From assembly GCA_019057385.1 (NCBI GenBank), contig JAHQJS010000007.1:683685-747684 (forward strand): a stretch of 64,000 nucleotides of DNA, given 5' to 3'. Numbering within the stretch: the first letter of the stretch is position 1; each line of letters opens with the position of its first letter. The position numbers and the translations under genes were made by a program. This DNA is from Candidatus Borrarchaeum weybense. GTDB lineage: Archaea; Asgardarchaeota; Sifarchaeia; Borrarchaeales; Borrarchaeaceae. Below the pieces are notes generated by a model, which saw only the letters and a list, made by a program, of their open reading frames with translations, was not told the origin of the DNA and made no database searches. Positions 32,637 through 33,648 of this stretch are shown here, in pieces.

Positions 32637-32742
32637 ATATCCTTACCTGTTTTTAAACTATTTACTTCTGTTATCTTATTGGAATAATGTTCCGGATTTT
32701 TCATTTTTTCAAGAAATAACCGCTATTTAAGAAGGTGATAAA

Positions 32743-33648
32743 ATTCAAGAAATTATAATTGACACTGACCCAGGATATGACGATTTTTTAGCTTTAATGC
32801 TTGCTATTAAATCAGGAATGTTTAAAATCCATGCAATCACGACTGTTGCAGGAAATACAACTATTGAAAATACGACAAGAAATGCTCGATATATTTTGAG
32901 TTTACTGAAGAGAGAAGATATTCCTGTCTATTCAGGTGCCGAAAAACCACTTGTAAGAGAGTTGTTAGAATCTAAAGTACATGGAGAAAGTGGATTAGGA
33001 GATTTGCGTCCTCAGAATGAAGCGAATTTAACATACAATGCAATTGAGAAATTATTATCGCTTATTGAAAAGAGTCCTAATAAATTGAAACTTGTTACCC
33101 TAGGCCCTCTCACTAATATTGCACAAGCAATTAAGCAGGATTCGGAAATAATGTCCCATATGCAGGAAATCGTGATCATGGGTGGGGCAATACGAGTTCC
33201 AGGAAATGCAAATAGAGTTGCTGAATTTAATATCTTTGTAGATCCTGAGGCCGCAGATATTGTGTTCAGATTTCCCGTAAAAAAAACATTAATCCCTCTT
33301 GATGCATGTATGAATGTGAAAATGAGAGTATCTGATTTTGAGAGAATTAAGGATCCATTATTGAGAGAACCCATTGTTTCTATGATGACAGTATGCATTA
33401 AAATGATTTCTGAAAAAGAAGGATTCGATGCAGCACTGATGTATGATCCCTTAACTGTGTATTCACTTATGAATCCATCTGCGTGTAAAAAAATGGATTA
33501 CCATGTCGCAATTGAAACAAAAGGTGAAATAACCAGAGGAATGACGGTTGCAGAGTTAAGAAAAATAAGAGACGAGAAGCCAAACGTTACAGTTGTTGAA
33601 TGGATCTCTGAGAAATCATTTAAAGAAGATTTCATCAAGTTTTCATAG
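32743..33648 (+). CDS. Inosine/uridine-preferring nucleoside hydrolase (probable ATT start)
   Basis: The catalytic DTDPGYDD lies upstream of the first ATG. ATT at 32743 follows GAAGGTGA, with an in-frame TAA at 32728. GPLTN, MGG, AEFN..DPEAA and DP motifs. Confidence 0.9.
   Translation: MQEIIIDTDPGYDDFLALMLAIKSGMFKIHAITTVAGNTTIENTTRNARYILSLLKREDIPVYSGAEKPLVRELLESKVHGESGLGDLRPQNEANLTYNAIEKLLSLIEKSPNKLKLVTLGPLTNIAQAIKQDSEIMSHMQEIVIMGGAIRVPGNANRVAEFNIFVDPEAADIVFRFPVKKTLIPLDACMNVKMRVSDFERIKDPLLREPIVSMMTVCIKMISEKEGFDAALMYDPLTVYSLMNPSACKKMDYHVAIETKGEITRGMTVAELRKIRDEKPNVTVVEWISEKSFKEDFIKFS

Follow-up and report, generated by a model that had tools for sequence, protein, structure and literature searches.

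The stretch of DNA analysed here (the window) comprises 64,000 nucleotides on contig C7 of the genome of Candidatus Borrarchaeum weybense (4.18 Mb, 37% GC, 8 contigs), and near its middle it carries a nucleoside hydrolase gene with no ATG, GTG or TTG in frame before the family's N-terminal aspartate motif. An earlier note, made from the letters of the window alone, had proposed that this gene begins at an ATT, in keeping with a relaxed third-position selection of start codons throughout the lineage. We followed this up with profile searches, comparison with relatives and a genome-wide census of near-cognate codons (those close to a canonical start codon) behind Shine-Dalgarno (SD) motifs.

The nucleoside hydrolase gene and the loss of its canonical start

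The start region holds the following features, in order of position:
32728 to 32730, forward strand: in-frame TAA, the upstream closure of the hydrolase frame
32733 to 32739, forward strand: SD match AGGTGAT, 7 bases of the 12-base consensus AGGAGGTGATCC, at an aligned spacing of 7 to the ATT at 32743
32735 to 32737, forward strand: out-of-frame GTG inside the SD match, a remnant of the relatives' start codon; its frame closes after 7 codons
32743 to 32745, forward strand: ATT, the candidate initiation codon and the sole near-cognate codon at a functional SD spacing
32743 to 33648, forward strand: nucleoside hydrolase coding sequence, 301 codons and stop; full-length PF01156, 90% identity to same-genus orthologues
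32761 to 32784, forward strand: DTDPGYDD, the family's N-terminal aspartate motif, kept in the close full-length homologues inspected
32797 to 32799, forward strand: first in-frame ATG, the start in automatic gene calls; 283-residue product without the motif

The TAA at 32728 is a genuine stop (TAA is not recoded in this lineage), and the codons that follow it read GAA GGT GAT AAA ATT (32743) CAA GAA ATT ATA ATT before DTDPGYDD begins. As the earlier note had stated, none of them is an ATG, GTG or TTG; the first such codon of the stop-to-stop frame (32731-33648, forward strand) is the ATG at 32797, on the 3' side of the motif. The frame matches the profile PF01156 (IU_nuc_hydro) over positions 1-297 of 297, beginning at its residue 8 (E 1.9e-87), and its score of 294 bits against a curated cut-off of 34.2 places the product in the family, whose N-terminal DxDxxxDD aspartate cluster is present as DTDPGYDD.

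Translation from the ATG at 32797, which is what gene callers assume, would use the first canonical codon, and its 283-amino-acid (aa) product is indeed the one in a public collection built on the same contigs (there on a 905,039-bp contig). However, no SD stands in front of this ATG, and starting there would forfeit DTDPGYDD and the first 18 residues; because PF01156 matches from profile position 1 at residue 8, the start of the domain would be cut off. The motif is included in most close full-length homologues, although a few shortened calls exist, and the 283-aa call is the sole member of its protein cluster. We consider this start very improbable.

The ATT at 32743 is better placed. The 3' end of the 16S rRNA of this genome, GGATCACCTCCT, gives the SD consensus quoted above, and in the 2094 open reading frames (ORFs) that have ATG as their first canonical start the most frequent aligned spacing of SD 5-mers is 7-9; the spacing of 7 at the hydrolase falls within this mode, and the site was recovered in the genome-wide scan described below. 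The ATT, ATA and ATT codons farther on are too distant from AGGTGAT. The predicted N-terminus, MQEIIIDTDPG, puts six residues before the first aspartate, as in many members of the family (RihA/RihB/RihC type), so that the protein is ordinary for PF01156 and the start codon alone is unusual. A scan of 32100-32900 for bacterial-type promoters and terminators, which does not cover archaeal promoters, gave nothing above shuffled sequences and no terminator before the gene.

Comparison with relatives explains how the ATT came to stand first. Two same-genus orthologues, each 90% identical, read AAG AGG GTG ATT AAA ATT CAA (genome G004) and AAG AGG ATG ATT AAA ATT CAA (G002), and the window reads AAG AAG GTG AT- AAA ATT CAA: a 1-base deletion has thrown the GTG out of frame. 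A protein search added about 10 clusters at 83-91% identity, with N-termini of the form M(I/V)(K/R)IQ(D/E)IIIDTDPG that begin at the upstream codon, and an in-frame GTG or ATG was confirmed at the metagenome loci L280, L281 and L284 (L283, the locus of the shortened call P0047, contains N letters and is uninformative). Relatives keep an ATT or ATC at the position of the window's ATT alongside their upstream in-frame ATG or GTG, and orthologues of 67-69% identity (303 aa, e.g., L285) have an ATG aligned exactly with it, giving MKEIIIDTDPG. Since close relatives keep the upstream start and these more distant orthologues have ATG at the ATT, the alignments indicate that this species alone, and only recently, has lost the canonical start. 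The deletion leaves it with an ATT where the family usually starts, preceded by a strong SD that is still intact.

That the deletion is an assembly or sequencing error (a T dropped from ATT AAA) would account for a single-base difference from the relatives beside a short homopolymer. We aligned Logan contigs (contigs, not raw reads) from four runs of four studies to positions 30000-49000. A 933-base contig of depth 13 from study P2 (X4) spans 32318-33251 with its sole gap at 32686, a contig from a third study (X7) has gaps at 32639 and 32686 only, and none of the four runs showed an indel at 32735-32743 or a 39-base insertion. An assembly error at this site is rejected, because these independent contigs lack the indel, and a dropped base is scarcely credible.

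A second kind of alternative accepts the deletion and rescues the old start. If ribosomes began at the out-of-frame GTG (32735) and tRNA-Lys then slipped by -1 on A_AAA (32740-32743), M-I-K-I-Q would be restored, since GTG ATA AAA slipping on the four-A run yields exactly the MIKIQ of the relatives. The GTG, however, is part of the SD and is not itself preceded by an SD at a usable spacing; its frame reads ATA AAA TTC, with no X_XXY_YYZ heptamer, and would allow a single-tRNA slip only. The fold downstream is unremarkable (minimum free energy -12.2 kcal/mol, z -1.07 against shuffles) and its stem begins 27 nt downstream, and out-of-frame canonical starts are not enriched genome-wide (see below). 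Slippage seems to us improbable.

The alternative that deserves most attention is that this is a recent start-loss, in which the 1-base deletion and a second one of 39 bases have silenced, or nearly silenced, the gene, the frame being still open for want of time and the ATT after the SD arising incidentally from the ancestral AGG GTG ATT AAA ATT. Several observations speak for it and weigh against initiation at the ATT. All of the roughly 10 close clusters have, three codons farther upstream, an ATG, GTG or TTG in frame, which this species alone has lost. A 39-base upstream segment with a TATA-like sequence (GTATTATA ... TAATTAAATA) is present in all relatives and missing in the window (32690-32742 compared with L003, L004, L280 and L281); in the relatives the distance from it to the ATG or GTG would suit a leaderless or very short-leader transcript. 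Two independent lesions in front of the gene would fit an early pseudogene as well, and because SD and ATT both pre-exist in relatives, neither was selected as a rescue. The lineage-specific substitutions, listed here as codon changes unique to each lineage, are too few to prove constraint since the deletion, and the whole evidence base is comparative or statistical.
This genome (G000): 8 synonymous, 12 non-synonymous
G002 (has ATG): 8 synonymous, 11 non-synonymous
G004: 17 synonymous, 14 non-synonymous

The ratio of 12 to 8 shows no clear constraint, but the sister lineage that has kept its ATG has the same ratio, and no extra relaxation is seen in this genome relative to the sister lineages. 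All 301 codons remain open, with no stop and no frameshift, in a genome of 37% GC; pairwise ratios of non-synonymous to synonymous substitution rates are 0.21-0.38 among the three orthologues; and both lesions are fixed in the contigs from other studies. The configuration left by the deletion is also one that the organism can use, because core genes of the genome that are conserved, such as those for CofD and a transcription factor B (TFB) paralogue (see below), keep an SD and a near-cognate start over the long term. Silencing by start-loss is thus a serious but, in our judgement, doubtful explanation, and we lean, with some reserve, towards an intact hydrolase gene that would be initiated at the ATT at 32743. 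The earlier suggestion of this codon can be kept, with the qualification that the ATT follows a recent 1-base loss of a canonical start.

We picture the events as follows. An ancestral in-frame ATG or GTG would have stood three codons upstream until the 1-base deletion shifted the GTG out of frame; that GTG is itself part of the strong SD AGGTGAT, and on pairing of AGGTGAT with the 3' end of the 16S rRNA the P site would fall on the ATT at 32743. The ordinary initiator tRNA (CAU) would most likely start there with methionine at reduced efficiency, giving a product that would begin MQEIIIDTDPG and have the length of the more distant orthologues.

Near-cognate codons behind Shine-Dalgarno motifs across the genome

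Whether the hydrolase stands alone was addressed by a census over 3664 gene-like ORFs called by codon-usage score, in which each in-frame codon that precedes the first canonical start by 5 codons or more was examined for an SD 6-mer at a spacing of 6-10. The counts with an SD, and the odds ratios (OR) against all other codons, were:
All other codons (reference): 82/14913 (0.55%)
CTG: 9/170, OR 10, p 8e-7
ACG: 4/149, OR 5, p 0.01
ATA: 14/699, OR 3.7, p 9e-5
ATT: 13/796, OR 3.0, p 1e-3
ATC: 3/322, OR 1.7, not significant
Near-cognate codons pooled: 43/2136, OR 3.7, p 2e-10

The genome-wide census thus bore out a recurrence of such sites. AAT, TTA, AAA, GAA, AAG and AGG showed no SD enrichment in this census, the same measure taken deep inside genes was flat, and the enrichment was gone at spacings of 13-17 (OR 0.5) and 0-4 (OR 1.6, not significant). 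Out-of-frame canonical starts near the candidates are not enriched (17/43, compared with 47-58% in controls); therefore hidden frameshifts are not the general cause, and frameshifting as a general explanation was rejected.

By 6-mer SDs the excess amounts to about 31 genes, and by 5-mer SDs to about 44; because 5-mer SDs precede only 28% of ATG starts, the true number would be about 44 to about 160 genes (1-4%). Among the SD-bearing excess, 71% have a 6-mer or longer, compared with 41% of ATG starts, and these stronger SDs would look like the compensation expected for a weak codon. It is very likely, on this statistical evidence, that near-cognate initiation behind a strong SD is a genome-wide habit of low frequency. 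Part of the earlier proposal stands, as near-cognate starts behind good SDs do recur beyond chance; they seem to be limited to some 1-4% of genes with an unusually strong SD, and no general relaxation of start selection is apparent. The proposed restriction to the third position falls away, since CTG and ACG exceed ATA and ATT, and ATC is not significantly enriched.

Individual genes give this habit substance. In six of them a Pfam domain begins within 3-20 residues of the near-cognate codon, and 27-100 codons ahead of any canonical start:
CofD: ATT
TFB paralogue (zinc ribbon): ATT
ADP-forming acetyl-CoA synthetase (ACS): ATA
aCPSF-like metallo-beta-lactamase (MBL) protein: ATA
HdrA-like flavoprotein (flavin adenine dinucleotide, FAD, loop): CTG
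GT2 glycosyltransferase: ATT

In an amidohydrolase (ATT), the domain likewise begins ahead of the first canonical start, by 22 codons, but its distance from the ATT is 51 residues. The ATT of CofD is found in all 5 of the 5 genus genomes, down to 78% identity and in one of them behind a different SD; most other Asgard families compared have ATG or TTG within one codon of it. The ATT of TFB is kept in three genomes; for ACS, three genomes have ATA and one has ATT, with GTG at that codon in G001; the aCPSF-like gene has ATA-ATA or ATA-ATT across four genomes; and the HdrA-like gene has CTG in two, its paralogues having ATG one codon away. Because they are conserved between species, these candidates are neither start-loss pseudogenes nor read errors, two outcomes that the earlier note had allowed for, and the alignments mark the near-cognate starts of the conserved genes as long-lived states. 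Some 1-4% of genes, CofD, the TFB paralogue, ACS and a tetratricopeptide repeat (TPR) protein in the window among them, would on this evidence begin at ATT, ATA, CTG, ACG or, rarely, ATC behind an unusually strong SD. Taken together with this habit, initiation of the hydrolase at its ATT makes up a combined reading that seems to us rather probable.

At the ACS gene (C8:187339, reverse strand) and its orthologues L078 and L081, an ATG in another frame comes after the SD and shares bases with the in-frame TGA upstream (GGTGATATGAATA). Three species keep this ATG, from which an ORF of 11 codons extends over the ATA/ATT start and across a T8 tract; it may be a small coupling ORF, or meaningless.

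The initiator tRNA, which the earlier note had suggested inspecting, is ordinary. A search by pattern gave a single one, whose anticodon is CAU and which has A1:U72 and the GGGG/CCCC anticodon stem; we saw no sign of altered decoding, in a search for initiator-like tRNAs with other anticodons that was not exhaustive. The gene (C5:353423-353522) is interrupted in its T-arm region by 29 bases, at an intron position that is not canonical; it was missed by aragorn, which found few tRNAs even with -i, owing to introns. The single aIF1 gene (C4:845073-845378) has GGTGA at a spacing of 9 from an ATA and 21 from its first ATG, which comes 4 codons after the ATA; the ATA is a possible start. Ribosomes would initiate at the near-cognate codons with insertion of methionine, at the price of lower expression and with sensitivity to aIF1.

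Known near-cognate initiation, other genomes and gene calls

Near-cognate initiation is a mechanism of a known kind, and the sequences compared here indicate that in this genome it is real, conserved and of low frequency, with CTG and ACG included. E. coli infC (IF3) and pcnB are bacterial genes initiated at AUU, which differs from AUG in the third position only and is read by the normal initiator tRNA behind an SD. The likeness lies in a near-cognate codon behind an SD and a normal initiator tRNA, and a reduced, fidelity-factor-sensitive expression would be expected here too; in the hydrolase, no in-frame ATG, GTG or TTG lies between the upstream stop and an indispensable N-terminal sequence. 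A near-cognate codon as the sole start in orthologues is found for the TPR protein (ATC), CofD and TFB (ATT) and ACS (ATA/ATT). However, infC and pcnB are two isolated regulatory cases checked by IF3, whereas here tens of genes would be involved, with aIF1 (the eIF1 homologue) as the would-be factor; CTG and ACG are also used, and a regulatory role is only conjectural.

The order seen in the census, CTG > ACG > ATA ~ ATT > ATC, with AAG and AGG not enriched, resembles the order of efficiency of near-cognate codons in eukaryotes. The factor core (aIF1, aIF1A, aIF2) is common to both, and eukaryotic initiation at CUG, ACG, AUA and AUU is policed by eIF1 and eIF1A (PMC6412873, PMC4705826). Unlike in eukaryotes, positioning here would be by SD pairing and not by scanning with Kozak context, and the near-cognate codons would be the main starts of ordinary genes, where the eukaryotic ones mostly serve upstream ORFs or N-terminal extensions. 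Among archaea, SD pairing in Pyrococcus abyssi pre-positions the complex, the initiator tRNA tests the triplets that come into the P site, and aIF1 is reported to make complexes on non-AUG mRNA less stable (PMC6237735); the model mRNA of that study (GGAGGUGAU, 4 nt, AUG) is close in geometry to the hydrolase (AGGUGAU, 3 nt, AUU). In ribosome profiling of Haloferax volcanii, near-cognate codons made up about 30% of the putative alternative start sites, and these were set aside (PMC7261190). Neither of these two papers describes conserved near-cognate main starts of housekeeping genes, or Asgard archaea, and in the literature searched we found none linking Asgard archaea with near-cognate start codons.

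The same census script was run on samples of this and other genomes and of E. coli K-12, with the following results for near-cognate codons behind a 6-mer SD:
G000 (this genome), first 1.2 Mb of C4: 14/640, OR 4.5, excess 10.8
G040 (another Asgard family), first 1.2 Mb: 13/517, OR 5.9, p 1e-5, excess 10.8
G006 (Asgard, 1.4-Mb genome), 0.4 Mb: 6/214, OR 5.2, excess 4.8
G016, 0.4 Mb: 2/218, OR 0.94, no excess
G029, 0.4 Mb: 1/167, OR not estimable, too few counts
E. coli K-12, first 1.2 Mb: 4/626, OR 0.95, excess -0.2

As G040 and G006 show an excess of similar size, the habit is not special to the genus, and the earlier description of it as particular to this lineage has to be given up. The flat result for E. 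coli counts for less than it appears to, because a 5-mer SD at this spacing is found at 13% there compared with 28% here, which lowers the power of this control to about half. We suggest, as a tentative and rather improbable reading, that Asgard archaea as a group, beyond Borrarchaeum, may tolerate near-cognate starts at a few percent of genes, in the eukaryote-like order CUG > ACG > AUA ~ AUU > AUC, buffered by a strong SD and perhaps tuned by the dosage of aIF1, the SD of whose own gene is placed on an AUA; such a regulon of start-codon stringency would be older than eukaryotes. The start-selection core of eIF1, eIF1A and eIF2 is common to Asgard archaea and eukaryotes, and, if the suggestion is true, housekeeping starts at AUU, AUA and CUG would offer a natural handle on the stringency of this core in the closest prokaryotic relatives of eukaryotes and would bear on whether weak start codons set expression levels.

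There are also consequences for annotation. In the public collection ACS is shortened to 430 aa, the aCPSF-like protein to 328 aa, the GT2 glycosyltransferase to 242 aa and the amidohydrolase to 459 aa. Prodigal-type callers miss near-cognate starts, as the earlier note had expected and as the 283-aa hydrolase illustrates, but NCBI's Prokaryotic Genome Annotation Pipeline (PGAP) catches some: its record MFX1466503.1 for ACS in a sister metagenome-assembled genome (MAG; 461 aa, beginning MSLDVFF) starts at the ATA. Annotation of such MAGs may shorten the N-termini of perhaps 40-160 genes per genome, with the loss of catalytic motifs, zinc ribbons, nucleotide-binding loops and signal peptides, and metabolic reconstructions and structure predictions for Asgard archaea carry over errors of this kind. 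Four hydrolase calls from other metagenomes (P0066, P0072, P0078 and P0091; 70-73% identity, contigs of 2-57 kb) begin after DTDPG, at MLAIKS or MFKIH, and may be further independent cases without a canonical start.

Further sites in the window and minor observations

A window-wide run of the caller flags 2 of 61 gene-like ORFs. Apart from the hydrolase, three sites named in the earlier note were compared with relatives:
4083 to 5498, reverse strand: TPR protein gene, ATC start at 5498-5496, GGTGA SD at 5509-5505, aligned spacing 9
21978 to 22322, reverse strand: thioredoxin-like gene from an in-frame TTG at 22322-22320, 12 codons upstream of the ATA at 22286
47377 to 47919, reverse strand: PEMT/ICMT-like membrane protein, possible ATT start at 47919-47917, behind AGGAGGGGG (47936-47928)

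The first of these fared best. The first canonical start of the TPR gene lies 67 codons downstream of the ATC, and the coding score of the intervening sequence is +23.5; the 5' region is identical in G002, the ATC is also kept in G004 (three assemblies in all), and the orthologue in G001 (67% protein identity) has an ATG at exactly the aligned codon. The comparison argues strongly for the ATC at 5498 as a near-cognate start.

The ATT at 47919 is a possible start. The site exists as described, and the first transmembrane helix would be complete with a start there. However, the frame has a TTG 14 codons farther on, and the SD stands at a spacing of 11 from the ATT, or of 8 only in a G:U register of AGGGGG. 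The search for a close orthologue of this gene returned none, the best match being 40% identical with internal stops.

The suggested ATA start at 22286 was overtaken by the in-frame TTG at 22322, which had been missed; since this TTG lies upstream and is conserved in the sister species, the ATA is not required. The window has a TTTATAA box 19 nt in front of the TTG, and G004 has kept both. Relative to G004 (L029), the thioredoxin-like gene (21978-22448, reverse strand) has a 30-base in-frame deletion and, just before its first beta-strand (DL[L/M]LFTSPY), a CTG where G004 has ATG, another ATG/CTG exchange.

Elsewhere in the genome, the 16S rRNA gene match (C5:332567-335232) extends over 2666 bases against a 1478-position model, so that about 1.2 kb is inserted, probably as one or more introns. 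A tRNA with anticodon CUA (tRNA-Pyl type, a reader of TAG) was predicted by aragorn, in agreement with the stop-codon recoding reported for Borrarchaeota and Sifarchaeota (PMC9723677); frames of this genome that are bounded by TAG need careful reading.

Finally, the contigs X4 and X7 link position 41191 of the window directly to 41521, omitting 329 bases. The depth across 40778-42045 is 2-3 times that of the neighbouring sequence, with many loose ends at 41232, 41264, 41486 and 41520, and the segment 41191-41521 looks like a multi-copy insertion (a small mobile element, or one resembling a miniature inverted-repeat transposable element) that is present here and absent from other populations.

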